Shown here piece by piece: positions 7,732-19,909 of a stretch of 20,196 bases of DNA; position 1 is the first letter of the stretch, and each line of letters opens with the position of its first letter. The position numbers and the translations under genes were made by a program. This DNA is from a virus (taxonomy: Duplodnaviria > Heunggongvirae > Uroviricota > Caudoviricetes). The notes beneath the pieces were generated by a model that ran no database searches, was not told the origin of the DNA, and was given only the letters and a program-made list of their open reading frames with translations. Location: the IMG/VR virus record IMGVR_UViG_2563366948_000002, positions 1-20,196 of that record, one strand, 5' to 3'.

Positions 7732-8769
7732 TCATTCAATACCTAAATTATAATCTTCAAAACGCATGACTTCTTCTCCAAGCCAGTCGTTCAATTCCTG
7801 AAGGCGCTTCTGCAGAGGTATCAACTCGTTGCGAACAAAGACGCGGCTGGCTTTCTCCACATCCCCAAACCCCCCAACATTACTCGGCATAATCCCCATC
7901 ATTTGCGGCGGCACACGATGTGCTGCCATCATGTCATCCCGACTCACGTTCTTGATATTCAAAAACTCATCCTTCGCTGCGACCTCTGACAACGGGATAA
8001 TCTGAAGTCCGTCCTTTTTGCCGTTAGGCGAGTACATAAACAGATTGCGGAAGTTGCCAGGGCCTTTGGCGCTTTTCATTGCGTTGCGGAGGTTGTTCAC
8101 ATCTTCCTGGTTCTGCGCGGCATCGGTCATATACATGATGAAGCCTGCATGGCTACCGTTAATGTAATACTTGCGGCGGAACAGCGTGGCGGACTCGTTG
8201 AGCAGGGCTGACGGAATGGCAGAAAGATAACCGGGCAGGCCGTAGATCTCCTGGTTGATGTCCGGTTCCATCAGATGAAAAATGCTGCCTTTCGTGAACT
8301 GATACGGCAGGGTTGTCATACCGTATTGCACAAACCAGTAGGTATCCAGGTCTAATCCGCGTCGGGTGTATTTTGCAAGCGCAGGCTCAAGAGCGATAAC
8401 TTCACCGAATCGGTTCGTGCGTTTCTCCAGGTAGGCGTTACCAAATACCAGATAGTCCTGCACAAAACGCGAAAAAGCCTGCTGGCTGAGCAGCGGATGA
8501 GGGATATAGGTACTGGTCAGAATGTTGCACTTTACTGCAATCGGGGAACTGTGATGCACGGCGGCGCGGAAGGTGCGCGCCAGTCCGTCAAAGCTGACGG
8601 GCGGCTCATACCAACGGTCCATCTGTACGCATTCCACATAATCCAGCAGTTCTCGGCGGTCCAGAACAGGAACGGGATCGCCGAAGCTGAATGCTTCGGC
8701 TGTAGTTTGACTTTTAAGCTGGATCTGTTTCGTCGCCGCAGCGCGGTTCTTCTTACTCTTTCCCATCAA
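7732..8769 (-). CDS. Q: Portal protein, P2 gpQ family
   Basis: 345 aa (P2 gpQ recalled as about 344 aa); start overlaps the P stop (ATGA) as in P2; translation typical of gpQ portal. Confidence 0.9.
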   Translation of the reverse strand: MMGKSKKNRAAATKQIQLKSQTTAEAFSFGDPVPVLDRRELLDYVECVQMDRWYEPPVSFDGLARTFRAAVHHSSPIAVKCNILTSTYIPHPLLSQQAFSRFVQDYLVFGNAYLEKRTNRFGEVIALEPALAKYTRRGLDLDTYWFVQYGMTTLPYQFTKGSIFHLMEPDINQEIYGLPGYLSAIPSALLNESATLFRRKYYINGSHAGFIMYMTDAAQNQEDVNNLRNAMKSAKGPGNFRNLFMYSPNGKKDGLQIIPLSEVAAKDEFLNIKNVSRDDMMAAHRVPPQMMGIMPSNVGGFGDVEKASRVFVRNELIPLQKRLQELNDWLGEEVMRFEDYNLGIE

Positions 8770-10532
8770 AAAATCTCCACAATATTGCTGGTATTGGCGG
8801 ATTCGCCCTGCAGCGGTTCGTTAAACAGTGCGTGCATCGTTGCCCAGGCCAGATCGGCGTGGCTGGCTTCTTCGCTGCGGCTGGCTTCATAGGTCGGGCG
8901 GTTGCCACTGGCGGTGGTGGCGCGACGGATTGCCATAAAGGACTGCGCTATGTCGGTGTGTCCGGCGTCAAACTCCAGACGGCGGTGGCTGATAATGTCG
9001 TAGGCCTTGAGTACCAGGGCGTTTTTAACGTTGGGGTTGTAGACAAACTCCCGGACGGCAGGAAAAAACGCTTTCACGTTCTCGTAAACCCCGTGACCAA
9101 CGCCGGTTGAGTCGATACCGATATAGGTCACGTTGTACTGTTCGGTCAGTTTTTTGATGGCGTCAGCCTGGGCGCGGAAGTCCATTCCGCGCCACTGGTG
9201 ACGCTCAAGAATGCGGAACTTACCGCCCGGCACGGCTGGCGGCGCCACCACCACGCATCCGGCGCTGTCGCCGTTCTGCGTACCTTTCGCCGGGTCATAT
9301 CCGATCCACACTTCGCGCCAGCCAAACGGGCGCAGGGCCAGTGCATGAAAGTCGGTCCAGACTTCCCAACTGTCCACCATGCACGCCTGCAGCTCGCTGA
9401 GTGGGAACACGGACGCGAGATCGTCCACGAACTCACACATCAGCAGGTTCTGGTATTCGTCCGGGCTGTACTCCATGCGCAACTGGTCGAGGTCGAACAG
9501 GTTACAGCCGCCGCGCACCGCATCTTCCACAGTGACTATCTGGCGGTACTGCCCGTCTGCGCACAGCAGGCCGGGGGCCAGATTGCTGTGGGACAGGTCG
9601 ATGTCCACCTTATCGGCTTTGTTGCGCCCTCGGTTGAACAGCGCACCGGACCAGAACGGATAAGCACTGTGTGTCAGGCTGGATGGCGTGGAAAAATAGG
9701 TTTGTCGCCATTTTTTGTGAATAGCCATACCGGAAGCCACTTTGCGCAGCTCCTGGAATTTCGGTATCCAGAAATATTCATCCAGATACAGGTTGCCGTG
9801 GTAACTCTGGGCCGTGCGGGCATTGGTGCCGAGGAAGTACAGCGTGGCCCCGTTAGGAAGCACCATCGGATCGCCTTTCAGCTCCACCTCCACTTCTTTG
9901 GCGAAGTCGATGATGTACTGCTTAAAGACGTGGGCCTGAGCCTTGCTGGCGGAAAGGAAAATCTGGTTACGCCCGGTTAGCAGGGCGTCAATCAGGGCTT
10001 CACGGGCAAAATAGAAGGTCGCGCCGATCTGGCGTGATTTCAGCAGGTTGCGGATGCGGTTGGTTTTTCCGGCTTCCCACCAGTGGCGCTGGTAGTTGAA
10101 CATGGAGGAATGGAAGATTTCTTCCAACTTCTCAATCTGTTCATCGGTGAAAACGTTCTTTTCCAGCTGACGGCGCGGGCCTTTGTTGCGGTTGGCGACG
10201 TTAGGGTTTAAGTCGGCTTCGTTGCCGCCATTGTTAAACTTGCCGATCCGCGCATGGCGCTCCGACTGGCGCGCCAGCAGGTCAATCTCTTTGAAATCTT
10301 TCCCTTCTTTGTGCTCCTTCATAATGAGCTGGCAGTAGCGTGCGGCGGTGGTGAGCTGCATCTGATCCAGCGGCCCATAGTCACCCCACTTGTCGCGTTT
10401 TTTCCAGCTGTGAACGGTTGCAACTTTCTCGCCCAGCATTTCAGCAATGCGGGCTACGCGGTATCCCTGAAAGTACAGCAGCATGGCCTGCCGACGGGGA
10501 TCGAGATCTGCGGGTGTCAGTGTGGTGTTCAT
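8766..10532 (-). CDS. P: Terminase large (ATPase) subunit, P2 gpP family
   Basis: 588 aa (P2 gpP recalled as about 590 aa); translation matches gpP family by recall; divergent from O as in P2. Confidence 0.9.
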   Translation of the reverse strand: MNTTLTPADLDPRRQAMLLYFQGYRVARIAEMLGEKVATVHSWKKRDKWGDYGPLDQMQLTTAARYCQLIMKEHKEGKDFKEIDLLARQSERHARIGKFNNGGNEADLNPNVANRNKGPRRQLEKNVFTDEQIEKLEEIFHSSMFNYQRHWWEAGKTNRIRNLLKSRQIGATFYFAREALIDALLTGRNQIFLSASKAQAHVFKQYIIDFAKEVEVELKGDPMVLPNGATLYFLGTNARTAQSYHGNLYLDEYFWIPKFQELRKVASGMAIHKKWRQTYFSTPSSLTHSAYPFWSGALFNRGRNKADKVDIDLSHSNLAPGLLCADGQYRQIVTVEDAVRGGCNLFDLDQLRMEYSPDEYQNLLMCEFVDDLASVFPLSELQACMVDSWEVWTDFHALALRPFGWREVWIGYDPAKGTQNGDSAGCVVVAPPAVPGGKFRILERHQWRGMDFRAQADAIKKLTEQYNVTYIGIDSTGVGHGVYENVKAFFPAVREFVYNPNVKNALVLKAYDIISHRRLEFDAGHTDIAQSFMAIRRATTASGNRPTYEASRSEEASHADLAWATMHALFNEPLQGESANTSNIVEIF

Positions 10533-10578
10533 GGCACAAACCTACAGCCTTGAATGAAGGCTTTCCCCGCCTGCGGTT

Positions 10579-10596
10579 TGTGTGGTTGTCGGTACA
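10579..10596. promoter_or_regulatory. Candidate Ogr-type late-activator binding site (TGT-N12-ACA)
   Basis: TGTgtggttgtcggtACA in the P/O divergent intergenic region, centred about 87 nt upstream of the O start codon. Confidence 0.35.
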
Positions 10597-10674
10597 AATA
10601 CCGCGCATTGTTTCACTGCCCCCATCACCGCAACCATAAGGCTCCAGTAAGTTTTTTCTAACGGAGCACGGCTC

Positions 10675-11367
10675 ATGACAGTGAAAGCAAAGCGTTTTCG
10701 CATCGGGGTGGAAGGTGCCACCACCGACGGACGCGAAATCCAGCGTGAATGGCTGGAACAGATGGCAGCCAGCTATAACCCGGCGGTGTATACCGCGCTG
10801 ATTAACCTTGAGCACATCAAGTCTTATCTGCCGGACAGCACCTTTAACCGCTACGGCAAGGTGACGGCGCTGTTTGCTGAAGAAATCACGGAAGGTCCGC
10901 TGGCAGGCAAGATGGCGCTGTATGCTGACGTTGAGCCAACGGAGTCCCTGGTGGAACTGGTGAAAAAAGGCCAGAAATTATTCACCTCTATGGAAGTCAG
11001 CCCGAAGTTCGCTGATACGGGCAAAGCCTACCTGGTCGGCCTGGCTGCCACTGATGACCCTGCCAGTCTGGGCACTGAAATGCTGACATTCAGCGCCAGT
11101 GCAGCCCATAAACCGCTTAACCCGTCGCTGGCCCGCGACATTATCGAAGGTATCCGCGCCAAAATGCGCAGCCTGGTCAGTCAGGGCTATCTCATTGGTG
11201 GTGATTGCTGGCTGGATGAGTCGGTGAACGACAAAGACACGCTGAAAGCCGGAAAACTCACCATCGACTACGACTACACGCCAGTGCCGCCACTTGAAAA
11301 CCTGATGCTGCGTCAGCGCATCACCGATCAGTACCTGGTGAATTTCGCCAGCCAGGTCAGCGCGTAA
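10675..11367 (+). pseudogene. Chimeric ORF: N-terminal part of capsid scaffold gpO fused to a C-terminal fragment assigned by synteny to tail sheath FI
   Basis: First about 150 aa resemble gpO (FRIGVEGxTxDGR...NLEH...[17 protein letters not shown]...NPLN). The ORF then ends 10 nt before FII, the position normally held by FI. N, M, L, lysis, baseplate and fibre genes are absent between O and FII. Confidence 0.6.
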
Positions 11368-11376
11368 GGGGACAAC

Positions 11377-11892
11377 ATGGCTTTACCACGCAAATTAAAA
11401 CACCTGAACCTGTTTAACGACGGGAACAACTGGCAGGGGATCGTTGAGTCGCTGACGCTGCCGAAATTTACCCGCAAATATGAGAAGTATCGCGGCGGCG
11501 GGATGCCGGGTGCGGTGGATGTGGATCTGGGGCTTGATGACAGTGCGCTGGACACAGAATTTTCCATTGGTGGTACTGAATTGCTGCTGTTTAAACAGAT
11601 GGGTAAAGCCACGGTGGATGGCATCCAGCTGCGCTTTACCGGCTCTATTCAGCGTGACGATACCGGGGAAGTGCAGGCCGTGGAGCTTGTCGTGCGTGGA
11701 CGTCACAAAGAAGTGGATTCCGGCGAGTGGAAGACGGGCGAAAGCAACACCACCAAAGTGACCAGTACCAACAGCTACGCGAAGCTGACCATCAATGGTG
11801 AGGTGCTCTATGAAGTGGACCTTATCAACATGGTGGAAATTGTGGACGGTGTGGACCTGATGGAAGCGCACCGCAACGCCCTCGGCCTCTGA
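11377..11892 (+). CDS. FII: Tail tube protein, P2 gpFII family
   Basis: MALPRKLKHLNLFNDGNNW...NMVEIVDGVDLMEAHRNALGL matches recalled P2 FII almost end to end; 171 aa. Confidence 0.9.
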   Translation: MALPRKLKHLNLFNDGNNWQGIVESLTLPKFTRKYEKYRGGGMPGAVDVDLGLDDSALDTEFSIGGTELLLFKQMGKATVDGIQLRFTGSIQRDDTGEVQAVELVVRGRHKEVDSGEWKTGESNTTKVTSTNSYAKLTINGEVLYEVDLINMVEIVDGVDLMEAHRNALGL

Positions 11893-11946
11893 TATATCTG
11901 AACGGCGCGGGATACCGCGCCAGAACCCAATTGACAGGACAGCAAA

Positions 11947-12249
11947 ATGAGCGATAAGCAGACTGAAAAGACCATTCAACTGGATACCCCCATCAAGCGC
12001 GGTAAAACAGAAATCACCGAAATTGTGCTGCGTAAACCGCAGTCCGGTGCGCTGCGCGGTACACGCCTGCAGGCCATTATGGATATGGATGTAAACGCGA
12101 TGATGACCGTGATCCCCCGCATCTCCAGTCCGGCACTGACTGCACAGGAAATTGCAGAGATGGACCCGGCAGATCTCACTGCCATGTCGGTTGAGGTTGT
12201 CACTTTTTTGTTGAAGAAGTCGGTGCTTGCCGGTTTACCGACAGCCTGA
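11947..12249 (+). CDS. E: Tail assembly chaperone gpE
   Basis: Small ORF between FII and T, as in P2; contains slippery heptamer TTTTTTG near its 3' end. Confidence 0.8.
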   Translation: MSDKQTEKTIQLDTPIKRGKTEITEIVLRKPQSGALRGTRLQAIMDMDVNAMMTVIPRISSPALTAQEIAEMDPADLTAMSVEVVTFLLKKSVLAGLPTA

Positions 12250-12383
12250 CGGTTGACGATCTTGTGGCAGATATCGCCACCATTTTTCACTGGCCGCCAT
12301 CCGTTACTGACGTTATGCCGCTGACCGAAGTGCTGGAATGGCGGTATAAAGCGATTCAGAGAAGCGGGGCCAACGATGAGTGA
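11947..12383 (+). CDS. gpE+E' product of a programmed -1 translational frameshift
   Basis: Slippery T_TTT_TTG at 12204-12210 in the E frame; the -1 frame stays open from 12210 to TGA at 12381-12383, overlapping the T start (12376). Confidence 0.55.
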
Positions 12384-15300
12384 TAACAACCTGCGTCTGC
12401 AGGTCATTCTTAATGCGGTTGACAAGCTCACCCGCCCATTTCGATCTGCGCAGGCCAGTTCAAGAGAACTGGCTGCTGCTGTCAAAAAATCCCGCGATGC
12501 AATAAAGCAGCTTGATCAGGCCGGGAGCAGTCTGGACAGCTTCCGAAAGCTGCAGGCAGAAAATCAGAAATTAGGCGACAGGCTGAACTATGCCCGCCAG
12601 CGTGCAAATTTGCTCAGTCAGGAACTGGGAGCGATGGGGCCGCCTTCGCAACGTCAGGTTGTTGCTCTGGGCCGTCAACGGCTGGCTGTTCAGCGCCTGG
12701 AAGAACGCCAGAAAAAGCTGCAGCAGCAGACGGCGCTTGTGCGTGCTGAACTGTACCGGGCGGGAATTTCTGCGAAAGACGATGCGGGAGCAACTGCCCG
12801 TTTAGCCCGTGAAACATCACGTTATAACCAGGAACTTTCGAAACAGGAGGCGCGGCTGAAGCGACTGGGGGAAGCTCAGCGCAGGATGAATGCAGCGCGT
12901 GCCAGTTATGCCCGTTCGCTGGAGGTGCGTGATCGTATTGCAGGTGCCGGAGCCACCACCACGGCTGCAGGGCTGGCAATGGGTGCGCCAGTGATGGCGG
13001 CAGTAAAAAGCTATACCAGCATGGAAGATGCCATGAAAGGTGTGGCAAAGCAGGTCAATGGTCTGCGTGACGATAATGGCAACCGCACTGCACGTTTTTA
13101 TGAAATGCAGGATGCCATCAAGGCTGCCAGCGAACAGTTGCCGATGGAAAACGGTGCGGTGGACTTCGCTGCACTGGTTGAAGGTGGTGCGCGCATGAAC
13201 GTCGCAAACCCTGACGACAGCTGGGAAGATCAGAAACGTGACCTGCTGGCCTTCGCCAGTACGGCAGCAAAGGCGGCAACAGCCTTTGAGCTGCCAGCGG
13301 ATGAACTGTCAGAAAGTCTGGGGAAAATCGCCCAGCTCTACAAAATCCCCACCCGCAATATTGAACAGCTCGGTGATGCGCTGAACTATCTGGATGATAA
13401 CGCCATGTCGAAAGGGGCAGACATCATTGATGTGATGCAACGTCTGGGCGGTGTGGCTGACCGTCTGGATTATCGTAAAGCGGCGGCGCTGGGTTCCACC
13501 TTCCTGACACTGGGCGCTGCGCCAGAGGTTGCAGCCAGTGCAGCAAACGCGATGGTGCGTGAATTGTCCATTGCCACCATGCAAAGCAAGAGTTTCTTTG
13601 AAGGGATGAATCTGCTGAAACTCAATCCTGAAGTGATTGAAAAGCAGATGACGAAGGATGCGATGGGAACCATCCAGCGCGTGCTGGAGAAGGTAAACGC
13701 GCTGCCGCAGGACAAGCGCCTGTCTGCCATGACTATGTTGTTTGGTAAAGAGTTTGGCGATGACGCGGCGAAACTGGCAAACAACCTGCCGGAACTGCAG
13801 CGTCAGTTAAAACTGACAGCGGGCAATGATGCGCTCGGCTCCATGCAGAAAGAATCCGACATTAACAAGGATTCACTTTCTGCGCAGTGGTTGCTGGTCA
13901 AAACCGGAGCGCAGAACACCTTCAGCAGCCTGGGCGAAACGCTGCGCCAGCCGCTGATGGATATTCTGTACACGGTGAAAAGCGTCACGGGGGCGTTGCG
14001 TCGCTGGGTGGAAGCTAACCCGGAACTGACAGGCACACTGATGAAAGCATCGGCTGTTGTGGCTGCGGTTACCGTCGGCCTCGGCACCTTAGCGGTGGCG
14101 CTGGCTGCAGTGCTGGGGCCGCTGGCAGTGATCCGTCTGGGATTCTCTGTGTTGGGTATCAAAACGTTATCTTCCGTTACGGCAGCAGTAACTCGAACCA
14201 GCAGCGCGTTGTCCTGGCTGGCTGGCGCACCACTGGCACTGCTGCGACGCGGGCTTGCTTCATCGGGCAACGCCGCAGGTTTACTTACTGCGCCGTTGTC
14301 GTCTTTGCGCCGCACGGCATCACTGACGGGAAATGTCCTGAAAACTGTAGCAGGTGCGCCGGTTGCACTTTTGCGGTCTGGATTATCCGGTTTACGTGCT
14401 GTTGCTGTGATGTTTATGAATCCTCTGGCGGTACTGCGCGGTGGACTGGCCGCCGCAGGCACGGTGCTGCGAGTACTGGCATCTGGTCCACTGGCGATGC
14501 TGCGCATTGCCCTGTATGCCATATCTGGTCTGTTAGGTGCTCTGCTCAGTCCGATAGGTCTTGTGGTTACTGCACTGGCGGGCGTGGCGCTGGTTGTCTG
14601 GAAATACTGGCAACCCATCACCGCATTTCTCGGTGGCGTGGTGGAAGGATTCAAAGCGGCGGCAGGTCCCATCAGTGCAGCGTTCGAACCGCTTAAGCCC
14701 GTGTTCCAGTGGATTGGCGACAAAGTGCAGGCGCTGTGGGGCTGGTTTACTGATCTGCTGACGCCCGTTAAGTCGACCTCTGCCGAACTGCAGAGCGCAG
14801 CGGCAATGGGGCGGCGATTCGGGGAGGCACTGGCGGAAGGGCTGAATATGGTCATGCATCCGCTGGACTCCCTGAAATCCGGCGTTTCCTGGTTGCTGGA
14901 GAAGCTCGGCATTGTCAGTAAAGAGGCCGCAAAGGCAAAACTGCCGGAAAGCGTGACGCGTCAGCAACCTGCGACGGTGAATGCAGACGGTAAAGTGATG
15001 ATGCCATCGGGTGGTTTTCCATCATGGGGATATGGCTTTGCGGGGATGTATGACAGCGGCGGGTATATCCCGCGCGGGCAGTTTGGCATCGTCGGTGAAA
15101 ACGGGCCGGAAATTGTTAACGGCCCGGCAAATGTGACCAGCCGGAGAAATACAGCTGCACTGGCTGCCGTTGTTGCCGGAATGATGGGCGTTGCTGCCGC
15201 GCCAGCAGAGCTTCCACCGTTGCACCCTTTGGCACTTCCCGCGAAAGGTGGAGAAGCAATTGTGAGTCGCGCAGCCACTGTGCCGCTCGTTCAACGGATT

Positions 15301-15453
15301 GAGGCACCGACGCAGATCATCATTCAGACGCAGCCAGGACAAAGTGCGCAGGATATTGCGCGGGAGGTGGCACGCCAGCTTGATGAACGTGAACGCAGGC
15401 TGAAGGCAAAAGCCAGGAGTAACTACAGCGATCAGGGGGGATACGACGCATGA
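12376..15453 (+). CDS. T: Tail tape measure protein, P2 gpT family
   Basis: 1025-aa Ala/Leu/Gln-rich protein with coiled-coil-like N-terminal half and repeated hydrophobic PLAxLR segments; sits between E/E' and U. Confidence 0.9.
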   Translation: MSDNNLRLQVILNAVDKLTRPFRSAQASSRELAAAVKKSRDAIKQLDQAGSSLDSFRKLQAENQKLGDRLNYARQRANLLSQELGAMGPPSQRQVVALGRQRLAVQRLEERQKKLQQQTALVRAELYRAGISAKDDAGATARLARETSRYNQELSKQEARLKRLGEAQRRMNAARASYARSLEVRDRIAGAGATTTAAGLAMGAPVMAAVKSYTSMEDAMKGVAKQVNGLRDDNGNRTARFYEMQDAIKAASEQLPMENGAVDFAALVEGGARMNVANPDDSWEDQKRDLLAFASTAAKAATAFELPADELSESLGKIAQLYKIPTRNIEQLGDALNYLDDNAMSKGADIIDVMQRLGGVADRLDYRKAAALGSTFLTLGAAPEVAASAANAMVRELSIATMQSKSFFEGMNLLKLNPEVIEKQMTKDAMGTIQRVLEKVNALPQDKRLSAMTMLFGKEFGDDAAKLANNLPELQRQLKLTAGNDALGSMQKESDINKDSLSAQWLLVKTGAQNTFSSLGETLRQPLMDILYTVKSVTGALRRWVEANPELTGTLMKASAVVAAVTVGLGTLAVALAAVLGPLAVIRLGFSVLGIKTLSSVTAAVTRTSSALSWLAGAPLALLRRGLASSGNAAGLLTAPLSSLRRTASLTGNVLKTVAGAPVALLRSGLSGLRAVAVMFMNPLAVLRGGLAAAGTVLRVLASGPLAMLRIALYAISGLLGALLSPIGLVVTALAGVALVVWKYWQPITAFLGGVVEGFKAAAGPISAAFEPLKPVFQWIGDKVQALWGWFTDLLTPVKSTSAELQSAAAMGRRFGEALAEGLNMVMHPLDSLKSGVSWLLEKLGIVSKEAAKAKLPESVTRQQPATVNADGKVMMPSGGFPSWGYGFAGMYDSGGYIPRGQFGIVGENGPEIVNGPANVTSRRNTAALAAVVAGMMGVAAAPAELPPLHPLALPAKGGEAIVSRAATVPLVQRIEAPTQIIIQTQPGQSAQDIAREVARQLDERERRLKAKARSNYSDQGGYDA

Positions 15454-15935
15454 TGATGGTGCTGGGATTGTACGTGTTTATGCTGCGCACCGTTCCGTAT
15501 CAGGAACTGCAGTATCAACGCAGCTGGCGACATGCGGCAAACAGTCGGGTAAACCGACGTCCGTCCACGCAGTTTCTGGGACCGGAAAACGACATGCTGA
15601 CGCTTTCCGGTGTTCTTATGCCGGAAATAACAGGCGGCAGGCTGTCGTTGCTGGCACTGGAGCAGATGGCAGAACAGGGGAAAGCATGGCCCCTGATTGA
15701 AGGCAGCGGCACGATTTACGGCATGTATGTGATTGAGGGACTGAATCAGACTAAAACGGAGTTTTTCCGCGATGGTATGCCGCGCCGGATTGAGTTCACC
15801 CTGTCGCTCAAACGGGTGGATGAATCCCTGTCCGATATGTTCGGTGATCTCAGTGCGCAGCTGAATAATTTGCAGGATACGACAACGTCTGCCTTAAGCG
15901 ATATCAGTAAAACGGTGGGAGGGCTGCTGTCGTGA
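15450..15935 (+). CDS. U: Tail protein gpU
   Basis: MMMVLGLYVFM...GVLMPEITGG...AWPLIEG...GMYVI...TLSLKRVDESL matches recalled P2 gpU; overlaps the T stop. Confidence 0.9.
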   Translation: MMMVLGLYVFMLRTVPYQELQYQRSWRHAANSRVNRRPSTQFLGPENDMLTLSGVLMPEITGGRLSLLALEQMAEQGKAWPLIEGSGTIYGMYVIEGLNQTKTEFFRDGMPRRIEFTLSLKRVDESLSDMFGDLSAQLNNLQDTTTSALSDISKTVGGLLS

Positions 15936-17032
15936 ATTTCAGCTCTGAACTGCTTAACAAAGGCAACAAAACTCCGGCATTCAGCATCAGTATTGAGGGT
16001 AAGGATATCACCACTGTGCTGGATAACCGCCTGATGAGTCTGACGCTGACGGACAATCGGGGCTTTGAAGCGGACCAGCTTGATCTGGAGCTGGACGACG
16101 CCGACGGAAAAATCGTGCTGCCGCGCCGTGGTGCGGTCATTACGCTGGCGTTGGGCTGGAAGGGGCAGTCGCTTTTCCCGAAAGGAGCATTCACGGTGGA
16201 CGAGATTGAACACACTGGCGCACCGGACCGCCTGACTATCCGGGCGCGAAGTGCTGATTTTCGTGAAACCCTGAATATCCGCCGTGAAAAATCGTGGCAC
16301 AAGACCACCGTTGGGGAAGTGGTGAAGGAAATAGCTGCGCGGCACAAACTGAAGATGGCATTGGGTGAAGACCTGTCGGATAAACCTGTGGAGCATATAG
16401 ACCAGACCAATGAGAGTGACGGCAGTTTTCTGATGCGGCTGGCGCGCCAGTACGGTGCTATTGCGTCGGTGAAAAATGACAATCTGTTATTCATCCGGCA
16501 GGGACAGGGTAAAAGCGCCAGCGGTAAACCACTACCGGTTATCACTATCACACGTAAGGACGGCGACAGTCACCGCTTTATCCTGGCAGATCGCGGAGCC
16601 TACACGGGCGTAATTGCCAGCTGGTTGCATACCCGCGAACCCGCGAAGAAAGAAAGCACCACGGTGAAGCGTAAGCGCAGGACTAAGAAGCAGAAGAAAG
16701 AGCCGGAAGCGAAGCAGGGCGATTACCTGGTGGGTACAGATGAAAACGTGCTGGTACTTAATCGCACCTATGCCAACCGGAGCAACGCCGAACGGGCGGC
16801 GAAAATGCAGTGGGAACGCCTGCAACGTGGCGTTGCGTCATTCTCGCTACAACTGGCAGAAGGTCGGGCGGATCTCTACACGGAAATGCCAGTGAAAGTC
16901 AGAGGCTTTAAACAGCCGATAGATGATGCGGAATGGACTATTACCACCCTGACGCATACTGTCAATCCGGATAACGGTTTTACGACCAGTCTGGAGCTTG
17001 AAGTGAAGATTAATGATTTCGAAATGGAATGA
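15932..17032 (+). CDS. D: Tail protein gpD (late control gene D family)
   Basis: 366 aa, probable GTG start overlapping the U stop (GTGA); last late gene before ogr, as in P2. Confidence 0.85.
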   Translation: MNFSSELLNKGNKTPAFSISIEGKDITTVLDNRLMSLTLTDNRGFEADQLDLELDDADGKIVLPRRGAVITLALGWKGQSLFPKGAFTVDEIEHTGAPDRLTIRARSADFRETLNIRREKSWHKTTVGEVVKEIAARHKLKMALGEDLSDKPVEHIDQTNESDGSFLMRLARQYGAIASVKNDNLLFIRQGQGKSASGKPLPVITITRKDGDSHRFILADRGAYTGVIASWLHTREPAKKESTTVKRKRRTKKQKKEPEAKQGDYLVGTDENVLVLNRTYANRSNAERAAKMQWERLQRGVASFSLQLAEGRADLYTEMPVKVRGFKQPIDDAEWTITTLTHTVNPDNGFTTSLELEVKINDFEME

Positions 17033-17122
17033 TTCTTCGTAATAGAGAACTTTTAAGTTTTCAAAATGGAATAATGCGGTATCATTATTGTGAATTTAGC
17101 AAAAATGGGGAGAGCTCGAAAA

Positions 17123-17341
17123 ATGATGATTTGCCCACTGTGTGGAAGTGCCGCCCATACTCGCAGCAGTTTTCAGGTATCTTCATTGACCAAAGAGCGT
17201 TACAACCAGTGCCAGAACATTAACTGCAGCCATACTTTTGTTACCCATGAAACTTTTGTTCGTTCGATTGCAACGCCAAAAGAGTCAAATCCGGTTCAGC
17301 CGCATCCAATGAAATCAGGACAGGTGGCGCTCTCTCTTTGA
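17123..17341 (+). CDS. ogr: Late gene transcriptional activator Ogr (zinc-finger)
   Basis: MMICPLCGSAAHTRSS...ERYNQCQNINCSHTF...PHPMKSGQ: C-x2-C-x22-C-x4-C zinc finger; 72 aa from ATG 17123 with GGGGAGAG SD (ORF track starts further upstream at 17090). Confidence 0.85.
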   Translation: MMICPLCGSAAHTRSSFQVSSLTKERYNQCQNINCSHTFVTHETFVRSIATPKESNPVQPHPMKSGQVALSL

Positions 17342-17421
17342 CTCTGCCGCCAATTTGTCGCCATCGTTAAAAAACAGTGCTTCTAACATCATGATTTTAA
17401 ACGGCATAAATTTCAGGCAAC

Positions 17422-17464
17422 AAAAAACCCATCAACCTTGAACCGAAATGGCGGGGTTGATGGG
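17422..17464 (-). terminator. Rho-independent terminator on the minus strand, downstream of ybjL
   Basis: On minus strand: CCCATCAACC-17 nt loop-GGTTGATGGG followed by TTTTTT (plus-strand arms 17428-17437 and 17455-17464, A-run 17422-17427). Confidence 0.55.
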
Positions 17465-17576
17465 CTCCACAAAATGGGGACATCAAAGAAAAGCAGTGGC
17501 ACTAATTAAGACTGATGCCCTGCGGAAAAGTTCTGCGGTTGTGCAAAAAAATTTCATTTTCAGGGCAACTTCAGTT

Positions 17577-19262
17577 TTATCCTAATCCTGGCCATACCAT
17601 GACGATGATTGTCCCTGCCAGCGTCAGCAGGACGTTGGCGATTGCATAGGTGCCCGCATAGCCCAGCGCCGGGATGTTACTGCGAGCTGTATCACTGATG
17701 ATCTCCATTGCCGGCGCGCAGGTACGTGCGCCCATCATTGCGCCGAACAACAGCGCGCGGTTCATTCGCAATACATAAGCACCGAACAAGAAACAGATAA
17801 CCACGGGCACCAGACTGACAATCAATCCGGCAATCAACATCTGACCGCCAATCGCGCCCAGGCCGTTATTAATACCGCTACCGGCGCTCAGACCAACGCC
17901 TGCCATAAACACCATCAAGCCGAACTCTTTCACCATGCTTAATGCACCCTGCGGAATGTAACCGAAGGTCGGGTGGTTAGCACGCATAAAGCCCAGCATA
18001 ATTCCGGCGAATAACAACCCGGCAGCGTTCCCCATGCCGAAACTGAATGTGCTGAACTGGAAGGTGATCATCCCGATCATCAGCCCAATAACAAAGAAGG
18101 CGCAGAATGCCAGCAGGTCAGTGACCTGGCTGTGAATCGAGATAAAGCCGATGCGATCGGCGATGGTTTTTACGCGGCGGGCATCGCCGCTGACTTGTAA
18201 AACGTCACCTTTGTTAAGCACGACGTTGTCATCTATCGGCATCTCAATCTGGCTACGAATGACGCGGTTAAGGAAGCAACCGTGATCGGTCAACTTCAGT
18301 TGTGCGAGACGTTTACCTACAGCGTTATGGTTTTTAACGACCACTTCTTCAGTGACGATACGCATGTCGAGAAGGTCACGATCGAAAACTTCTTTACCGT
18401 TACGGAAGCTGGGATCGAGTCGGGCATGGGCGTCGGGATAGCCTACCAACGCTATTTCATCGCCCATTTGTAGCACGGCATCACCGTCTGGATTTGCCAG
18501 AATCCCGTTACGTCGAATACGTTCAATGTAGCAGCCGGTTTGTCGATAAATACCCAGTTCACGCAGATTTTTGCCGTCGGTCCAGGCCACCAGTTCCGGG
18601 CCGACGCGATAGGCGCGGATCACCGGTAAATAAACCTTACGGTTGGCATCAGTGTCCAGGCCACGTTCGCGGGCGATTTGCTGGGCGCTGGTCTGTAAGT
18701 CCTGATGCTGCAATTTCGGCAAGTAACGCGCACCAACAATCAAACTCACCAGACCGATTAAATAGGTTAAGGCATACCCGAGGCTCAGATTATCCAGTGC
18801 CAGTGAGAGCTGCCTGCTTTCCATGCCGGAATGACGCAGTGTATCGCCAGCACCGACCAGAACCGGTGTCGACGTCATAGAGCCTGCTAACATACCGGCC
18901 GTCAGGCCAATATCCCAGCCAAACAGCTTACCTAACCCTAAGGCGATCACCAGCGCACTGCCAACCATCACCAGTGCTAACATTAGGTAATTTTTCCCAT
19001 CGCGAAAAAAAATGGAAAAAAAGTTCGGTCCGGCTTCGACCCCGACGCAGAAAATAAACAGCATAAAGCCAAGATTAAGCGCATCGGTGTTAATGCTGAA
19101 ATGTTGTTGGCCTAATAACAGCGATACGACTAAAACGCCAATGGAATTACCCAGTTGGATCGAACCAAGTCGTAACTTTCCGAGACATAGCCCAAGCGCG
19201 AGGACCACAAATAATAACAGAATGTAATTCCCATTTAACAATTCGGCGACGTTTATATTCAC
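17577..19262 (-). CDS. ybjL: Putative transport protein YbjL (two TrkA-C domains flanked by membrane domains)
   Basis: 561-aa polytopic membrane protein; matches E. coli YbjL by recall; GC and codon style differ from the cargo modules. Confidence 0.85.
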
Positions 19263-19531: not shown

Positions 19532-19909
19532 GTGAAACATAAACAACGTTGGGCGGGGGCAATCTGCTGTTTTGTCCTCTTCATTGTGGTGTGCCTTTTT
19601 CTGGCGACGCACATGAAAGGCGCTTTTCGGGCTGCCGGGCATCCTGAAATCGGCTTGCTATTTTTCATTCTTCCTGGAGCAGTCGCCAGCTTCTTTTCAC
19701 AGCGTAGAGAAGTCCTGAAACCTCTGTTTGGCGCAATGCTGGCGGCACCCTGTTCGATGCTCATTATGCGGCTGTTTTTTTCACCGACGCGCTCATTCTG
19801 GCAAGAGCTGGCATGGTTACTAAGCGCGGTGTTCTGGTGTGCGCTGGGGGCACTGTGTTTCTTATTTATCAGTAGTTTGTTTAAACCACAGCACAGAAAA
19901 AATCAGTAA
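19532..19909 (+). CDS. ybjM: Inner membrane protein YbjM
   Basis: 125-aa hydrophobic protein, GTG start with AGGAGG SD; divergent from ybjL and convergent with grxA, as in E. coli K-12. Confidence 0.7.
   Translation: MKHKQRWAGAICCFVLFIVVCLFLATHMKGAFRAAGHPEIGLLFFILPGAVASFFSQRREVLKPLFGAMLAAPCSMLIMRLFFSPTRSFWQELAWLLSAVFWCALGALCFLFISSLFKPQHRKNQ

Follow-up and report, generated by a model that had tools for sequence, protein, structure and literature searches.

A P2/186-like prophage at the rcdA/ybjL site

The window, by which we mean the whole 20,196-nt stretch analysed here, carries genes in the order typical of P2/186-like phages, int-CI / cox-cII ... cos-Q-P / O ... FI-FII-E-T-U-D-ogr, with att repeats flanking them (gene calls and Pfam). 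Two references served for comparison: phage 500465-1 (NC_049342, Wadgaonvirus) and the apparently intact prophage that E. coli APEC IMT5155 (NZ_CP005930) carries at this chromosomal position. The window shares att site and gene order with both, its nucleotide identity to them is 95-100%, and the retained genes are 94-100% identical. The whole element lies inside the window except for attL, whose core AACAAAAAACCCAT sits ~75-88 bp to the left, adjoining rcdA; the attR core, a direct repeat of it, is at 17419-17432 (+) and is followed by the host genes ybjL (17577-19262, -), ybjM and grxA, a flank that we found in 5,419 genomes.

The integrase gene at the left end (1-1053, -) encodes 350 aa, is intact, matches Pfam Phage_integrase and is 99.7% identical by tblastn to IMT5155 Int over residues 1-350; a mechanical ORF list had given it as 402 aa (1-1209), and the true gene has the same extent as in relatives. 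A YdcA-like gene of 63 aa (1242-1433) separates it from an intact 186-type CI immunity repressor of 189 aa (1449-2018, -; Pfam Phage_CI_repr), which is 100% identical to the CI of IMT5155. These are followed by a Cox/Apl-like excisionase-repressor of 73 aa (2144-2365, +; phrog_575, E 6e-31), also intact, and by a 96-aa ORF (2398-2688, +) with PHROG matches to both CII and DinI, which blastn to LR-46 and IMT5155 identifies as a CII'-'DinI fusion.

Cargo genes occupy the next 5 kb. Adjacent genes for a DarT ADP-ribosyltransferase (3156-3737, +; Pfam DarT, PADLOC DarT 2e-36) and a macrodomain DarG (3742-4713, +; Pfam Macro, PADLOC DarG 3e-80) constitute an intact DarTG pair. A conserved segment kept in all relatives (5140-5302, +) contains a cos-like 19-mer, GGCGTGGCGGGGATACGAG, at 5266-5284, which matches P2 cos at 14 of 19 positions and which we regard as a putative cos. 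Beyond it lies a three-gene cassette (5444-7662, +; 368, 144 and 221 aa) for which neither Pfam nor PADLOC gave a match and whose only hits were PHROGs of unknown function (phrog_12777, 11490 and 9664); the cassette is also present in AST205, a deletion derivative described below. Because the putative cos falls between DarTG and this cassette, the element carries cargo on both sides of it. The cos-proximal region of P2-like phages is a known defense hot spot (PMC9122126), and it is in this region that DarTG and the three-gene cassette sit, unlike in IMT5155 and 500465-1, where neither is found. The cassette is a candidate for an uncharacterised defense system.

The portal gene Q (7732-8766, -; tblastn 94%) and the large terminase gene P (8766-10532, -; tblastn 99.8%) are both full length and Pfam supported. 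They are separated from the rightward late genes by a divergent P/O late-promoter region (10533-10674). A motif search of this region located TGT-N12-ACA, a dyad of the Ogr type, at 10579-10596, in a position that corresponds to the activator site annotated between P and O in P2, and a ribosome-binding site, GGAG, in front of the next ORF. That ORF (10675-11367, +) is the O'-'FI fusion that is the subject of the following section. Downstream are FII (11377-11892), E (11947-12249), E' (12264-12383), T (12376-15453), U (15450-15935), D (15932-17032) and ogr (17123-17341), all on the plus strand, intact, Pfam supported and 98-100% identical over their full length by tblastn. Every retained late gene is thus full length, with 94-100% identity to functional relatives, and the two junctions described below are the only places in the element where we found pseudogenes. 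Terminator and promoter scans of 10400-17600 gave results no different from those for shuffled sequence.

Two in-frame deletions

The 230-aa product of the ORF at 10675-11367 has two Pfam matches, one to Phage_GPO (PF05929; residues 6-149, profile positions 2-145 of 268, E 1.4e-76) and one to Phage_sheath_1C (PF17482; residues 141-217, profile positions 27-104 of 104, E 5.6e-15). Against the intact IMT5155 prophage at the same rcdA/ybjL site, residues 1-145 are gpO 1-145 and residues 146-230 are residues 306-390 of the sheath protein FI, each at 100% protein identity. This agrees with the initial annotation, which had described an O'-'FI fusion ORF that starts like gpO, switches to unrelated sequence and ends where FI normally ends; derivation of the C-terminal half from a divergent gpO is excluded by the sheath match and the identity to FI.

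The DNA alignments place the event precisely. By blastn to both references, positions 8764-11117 are colinear with P and the first 443 nt of O, and positions 11108-17253 with the last 260 nt of FI through D/ogr. Three-way alignments set the junction at 11108-11117 (+), where the exact overlap between the parents is the 4-bp ATAA at 11108-11111, itself part of an imperfect 10-mer, ATAA[C/A]CCGCT, that matches at 9 of 10 positions. The junction reads GCAGCCCATAA^ACCGCTTAACCCG in the window (here and below a caret marks the break), and the parents read GCAGCCCATAACCCGCTGG (O) and GGTGGATAAACCGCTTAACCCG (FI). The breakpoint had been predicted at 11100-11150, and this was borne out, as was the reading of the fusion as the product of one internal deletion. 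O codon 145/146 is joined to FI codon 305/306, so that the O' part occupies 10675-11111 and the 'FI part 11112-11367. The segment missing relative to the references begins in the 3' part of O, extends into the 5' part of FI, 78% of which is gone, and measures 12.4-14.3 kb. Its length is 12,437 bp on the map of phage 500465-1 and 14,282 bp on that of IMT5155, which has an additional cargo gene in this span. As the O and FI parents share a reading frame, the chimera ends at FI's own stop codon (11367), and the 9 nt that separate it from FII are also the spacing seen in intact relatives.

In P2, gpO residues 1-141 form the maturation protease with S107 as the catalytic residue, residues 142-194 may recruit the portal, and residues 195-284 form the scaffold (PMC7552001). 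The N-terminal 145 residues of the chimera equal this protease domain (PF05929 positions 2-145), and its Ser105, an invariant residue, aligns with the catalytic Ser107 of P2. The gpO alignment stops at residue 145, and the middle region and C-terminal scaffolding domain (195-284 in P2) are replaced by 85 sheath residues. These do not make up a sheath either, since only FI 306-390, a partial C-terminal domain (PF17482 positions 27-104 of 104), is left.

The gene set for morphogenesis, lysis and replication is incomplete. Tblastn with every late and early protein of IMT5155 found in the window none of N, M, L, X, Y, K, holin, lysozyme and LysA/B/C, none of R, S, V, W, J, I, H, G and the invertase, and none of A, Dam, TraR, DUF2732 and DUF5347. 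The initial annotation was thus right to list the major capsid, small terminase, head completion, lysis, baseplate and fiber genes and most of the sheath gene as missing, and relocation of N, M or L to another part of the element can be dismissed. Together with the identity to FI, these absences remove both of the findings that it had named as evidence against its own reading. An R-type tailocin can be excluded on gene content, as sheath, baseplate, fibers and lysis are deleted while Q and P are kept. The same holds for a P4-like satellite: a primase/helicase replicon and sid/psu/delta are not among the ORFs, and the genes present are colinear with, and at least 94% identical to, those of helper-type P2-like phages.

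Replication genes had likewise been reported as absent, which tblastn confirmed, but the cause is a separate deletion that had been overlooked. Positions 1-2604 are colinear by blastn with int through CII codon 69, and from 2605 onward the sequence is that of the end of the DinI-like gene, so that CII codons 1-69 are joined in frame to the last 27 codons of that gene at a blunt junction (2604^2605) that is without microhomology. The missing segment, which begins in the 3' part of CII and ends in the 5' part of the DinI-like gene, comprises 5.1-5.7 kb, both against IMT5155 and 500465-1 and in the blastn comparison with LR-46 and IMT5155. It held Fil, DUF5347, DUF2732, TraR, Dam and the replication endonuclease gene A with the ori, which in P2 is annotated inside A, as well as a 62-aa ORF, a LexA box and most of the DinI-like gene.

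In IMT5155 (L008) a consensus LexA box, CTGTAAATATAAACAG, is found at 13979-13994, upstream of the 62-aa ORF and the DinI-like gene, and this box is deleted in the window. The LexA-boxed pair resembles a Tum-type SOS antirepressor module. Tum of phage 186 is such an antirepressor module, and by analogy with it the remnant has probably lost SOS inducibility; loss of the LexA-boxed module would lock it in the repressed state.

The 12.4-14.3 kb deletion also removed the V and F late promoters. With the F promoter lost, FII-E-T-U-D would be transcribable only by way of the chimera from the Ogr-dependent O promoter, which would also be the sole source of chimera transcription. The late operon thus appears rewired, with FII-E-T-U-D placed behind the Ogr-type O promoter and the chimera ORF. 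An in-frame outcome for both deletions has a chance probability of about 1/9 and could hint at selection against polar or toxic products. In NCBI the O'-'FI chimera is entered as "GPO family capsid scaffolding protein" and its CII'-'DinI counterpart as "DinI-like family protein"; annotation by the best domain conceals fusion pseudogenes such as these.

Carriers, related remnants and the origin of the element

At least 24 contigs from NCBI, ENA and Logan (37 index blocks) encode the exact 230-aa protein, with neighbors that are the same every time; the exact CII'-'DinI protein accompanies it and is likewise found on 24 or more contigs. Carriers include GCA_000408345.1, Pathogen Detection accessions such as EFG5705248.1 and ENA metagenome assemblies. 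Three loci from different samples show 0 differences to the window over 6.4-12.7 kb of the element, and one of three compared carrier loci differs at 5 positions in the host flank. The O'-'FI junction occurs in none of 5,426 complete E. coli genomes, 1,119 of which have the parental genes, and a 35-mer across the junction is absent from the GTDB species representatives. That the source assembly is at scaffold level and that finished genomes lack the junction are what one would expect had an assembler or scaffolder joined two parts of an intact prophage. We give virtually no credence to such an artifact: independent assemblies in NCBI, ENA and Logan arrived at the same junction, which they carry on at least 24 contigs, a 4-bp overlap is too short for assembler mis-joins, and analogous junctions are present in finished genomes. 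The deletion is genuine, and it is inherited in one clone too young for visible decay or selection. The identity among carriers and the absence of the junction from complete genomes and GTDB representatives argue for a clonal, lineage-specific event that is probably recent.

Other strains carry differently deleted prophages at the same locus. LR-46 has a V' to 'T deletion, AST205 a P' to 'E' deletion, H5 an O' to 'E' deletion together with an internal T deletion, HL15 a CII' to 'FI deletion, IAL7255 four deletions, and GCA_949281545 an independent O'-'FI fusion that joins O267 to FI; H3 and EC581 contain further deletions. The first six of these resemble the window in that int-CI is kept on the left and (T)-U-D-ogr on the right, and in that several have O' or 'FI fusions with short microhomology (0-4 bp). 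They differ from it in that their breakpoints are all different, none has the window's junction and most keep the replication genes. A search with the chimera as query returned at least 25 further distinct O'-X fusion ORFs, many of them out of frame, whose partners were FI, FII, E, T, U, D, W, I, X, lysozyme, M, S, R and LysB. In two other cases, P0020 (O145-X) and P0154 (N135-X), the truncated protein runs on, in reverse complement, through the P/O intergenic region and the beginning of P; both junctions are of the inversion type and have one partner site in common, at about 19886-19889 of IMT5155, minus strand. A cryptic P2 remnant in E. coli K-12, 'D-ogr-attR, was reportedly described by Barreiro and Haggard-Ljungquist in 1992. 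It too is reported to keep the right prophage end, but to be far more reduced than the element in the window and to lack int, the immunity gene and cargo.

We interpret the window, with a probability of roughly 85%, as containing a P2/186-like (Peduoviridae) prophage of an E. coli lineage, located between rcdA and ybjL and made defective by two illegitimate-recombination deletions in the course of recent, ordinary decay. We propose that an intact prophage of ~35-37 kb would have been reduced to the present element as follows. One deletion joined O and FI across the 4-bp ATAA overlap within the 9/10-bp imperfect repeat, with loss of the gpO scaffolding domain, N, M, L, X, the genes for lysis, R, S, those for baseplate and fibers and the invertase, and the in-frame join created an ORF for the 230-aa chimera of an intact gpO protease domain and a truncated sheath C-terminal domain. 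The CII'-'DinI deletion took the endonuclease with the ori, Dam, Fil and the LexA-boxed DinI-like module. Host lineages that lose lethal phage functions may be favored, and no selection specific to the fusion would be needed.

Judged by its gene content, the element should be unable to replicate, lyse the cell or make particles, and the initial annotation's statement that it cannot form particles, made on the grounds of the same missing genes, appears sound. It also noted that immunity, int and the defense cargo are retained, and CI, int and DarTG are indeed intact by tblastn, Pfam and PADLOC. The element would accordingly be expected still to provide Int/Cox and immunity through CI, along with DarTG and the cargo of three genes.

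In incomplete prophages it is mainly the genes for replication, packaging and lysis that disappear, while the integrase and accessory genes tend to stay (PMC7744054); the element fits this finding and also the argument made for "grounded prophages" (PMC6379469). The element shows the same preferential losses as such grounded or cryptic prophages, with integrase, immunity and accessory genes retained in both, and differs from them generally in being very young, with copies that have not diverged. Retention of int, immunity and cargo together with loss of lytic functions is thus the pattern that generic prophage decay predicts. The position of the O breakpoint, which leaves exactly the protease domain, is a point that we count against plain decay.

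The initial annotation had gone further and suggested a domesticated, defense-carrying remnant, that is, one from which the host benefits through non-lethal immunity, DarTG and cargo and which purifying selection maintains. Intact immunity, int and cargo alongside the loss of lethal and replication functions would fit this, as would the persistence of the element in at least 24-50 assemblies, gut metagenomes included, and the known defensive nature of cos-proximal P2 cargo (PMC9122126). All copies are identical, however, and so offer no divergence from which selection could be measured, and the junction is absent from the 5,426 complete genomes. Q, P, FII, E, T, U and D are useless alone yet full length, which argues against streamlining. 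The prophage ends are also kept in many differently deleted remnants, as decay alone would lead one to expect (PMC7744054). We consider domestication unlikely and, as stated, unsupported, given clonal carriers with 0 differences over 6.4-10.4 kb of the element, full-length but useless late genes and other strains with different deletions; strict domestication is not needed to explain the data.

A role for the chimera itself is far less probable still. One could imagine that the Ogr of a superinfecting P2-like phage induces it and that its product disturbs capsid maturation or sheath polymerization, and the intact protease domain with its conserved catalytic Ser, the retained Ogr-type promoter and ribosome-binding site and the in-frame fusion would all be compatible with this. 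Conservation is nevertheless limited to one clone, the sheath part is an incomplete domain (profile positions 27-104 of 104), and dozens of other O'-X fusions exist with arbitrary partners, many of them out of frame, which marks such fusions as by-products. The chimera is most likely a by-product without function. The fusion is a further case of a well-known phenomenon, the textbook disarming of a prophage, and illustrates that a defective element can still carry DarTG, a candidate defense cassette and immunity.

Recurrent deletion endpoints in P2-like prophages

While the structure proposed in the initial annotation for the O'-'FI deletion stands, what it overlooked is that the breakpoints coincide with sites reused by independent deletions. 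We mapped 41 junctions on the IMT5155 reference, whose coordinates are used throughout this section. Within O, codon 267 (20801) was joined to 10 different partners and codon 241 (20723) to 6, and codon 145 (20437) was used in the window, in L015 and in P0020; for L015, an O-to-lysozyme deletion in another strain and at another locus, use of the O145 site was confirmed at the DNA level. The E' site, GCCGCTG^ACCGAAG (35929^35930; 12317-12330 in the window, where it is intact), served as the right end of 4 events and the left end of 2, so that at least 6 independent deletions in other strains broke the same phosphodiester bond, with P, O, W, FII, N, T and D as partners. Sites in D (40238-40248, 39883 and 40314-40336), T (38131) and K (23685) were also recurrent. 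About 25 of 999 complete genomes carrying the E' region were truncated at the E' site, compared with only 5 of 1,041 around the O145 region. Clustering of the endpoints is thus firmly established, and their coincidence with recurrent sites makes a picture of "random" illegitimate recombination too simple.

Many of these breaks can be placed immediately 5' of the motif ACC(C)G, which was the case for 14 of 32 distinct right sites and 7 of 23 left sites, against a background of ~2.5% among random pairs handled identically. In O nt 420-834 there are exactly five copies of ACC(C)GC, all of which were observed as breakpoints; on the opposite strand the motif also marks O267 (GTT^ACCGCC), the most heavily used site in O. 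The ends of the O'-'FI deletion can be placed at CATA^ACCCGC in O and GATAA^ACCGC in FI, and the right end of the CII'-'DinI deletion reads CTG^ACCGGACTGC in the DinI-like gene. We carried out an out-of-sample test by searching with the N-terminal part of the capsid protein N. The hottest N site, N65/66, had at least 10 partners, was confirmed at the DNA level in two assemblies and reads CTG^ACCGGACTGC on the bottom strand; it has a 13-mer, CTGACCGGACTGC, in common with the DinI site, and the two are broken at the same bond. The partner sites of the N-X fusions repeat earlier ones (E', D, T, K and I). Only 2 of 17 distinct breakpoint clusters in the N set fit the motif, however, and 12 of the 14 motif copies in N nt 1-620 were unused, so that the motif is neither necessary nor sufficient. 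Over dozens of independent O'-X and N'-X fusions, the breakpoints cluster at O267, O241 and O145 in gene O (20420-20834) and at N65/66 and N118 in gene N (20851-21470).

These observations raise the possibility of a site-preferring nick or double-strand break directly 5' of ACC(C)G. A nuclease of the host or of a phage could make it, or incoming phage DNA could be restricted, its ends joined and the product integrated by Int. The placement of the window's own ends, the independent reuse of O145 in L015, the complete use of the motif copies in O nt 420-834, the excess over background at right and left sites and the 13-mer shared by the hottest N site and the DinI site all point in this direction. 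Against it, the motif was defined post hoc, the N set fits it poorly, and the hot sites T 38131, N118 and D 40317 are without it. Neither the nick site of P2 A nor the att core, the GajA site or serine-invertase geometry fits, and on balance we regard such an activity as doubtful; the link to the motif is suggestive.

Several known activities were compared with the endpoints and rejected. The nick site of the P2 A protein (GCGCCTCG^GAGTCC in P2 and CCCCTTG^GACTCG in a relative) bears no resemblance to them, and the core AACAAAAAACCCAT is unlike them, which dismisses Int acting at pseudo-att sites. A DNA hairpin at the E' hot spot was not significant (z = -0.36). The GajA/OLD-type nicking site, TNNNC^GGGNNA, has a cut position that does not fit, and at serine invertase quasi-sites the crossover would be 3' of AACC, whereas the ACC of the junction comes from the right-hand parent. 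Chi, EcoKI, EcoBI and EcoP15I sites gave no convincing match in a comparison made by eye only.

The recurrent, partly motif-linked endpoints are the part of this analysis worth following up, the fusion itself being of low to moderate interest. A less likely but more far-reaching reading is that deletions in P2-like prophages of E. coli, the window's two included, are non-random and begin or end at a few sequence-defined sites, typically with the break directly 5' of ACC(C)G as in CTG^ACCGRA. If so, a nuclease or recombination activity with a preference for such sites would have to exist, perhaps in the form of a defense system or of restriction of incoming phage DNA with subsequent end joining and integration. 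Its systematic effect would be to convert phages into harmless remnants in which immunity and defense cargo are preserved. One prophage family at one chromosomal site provides dozens of independent deletion junctions with strongly clustered endpoints. Should a defined activity be the cause of this clustering, it would explain how lysogens escape from their prophages and would offer a tractable system for the study of illegitimate recombination in natural populations.
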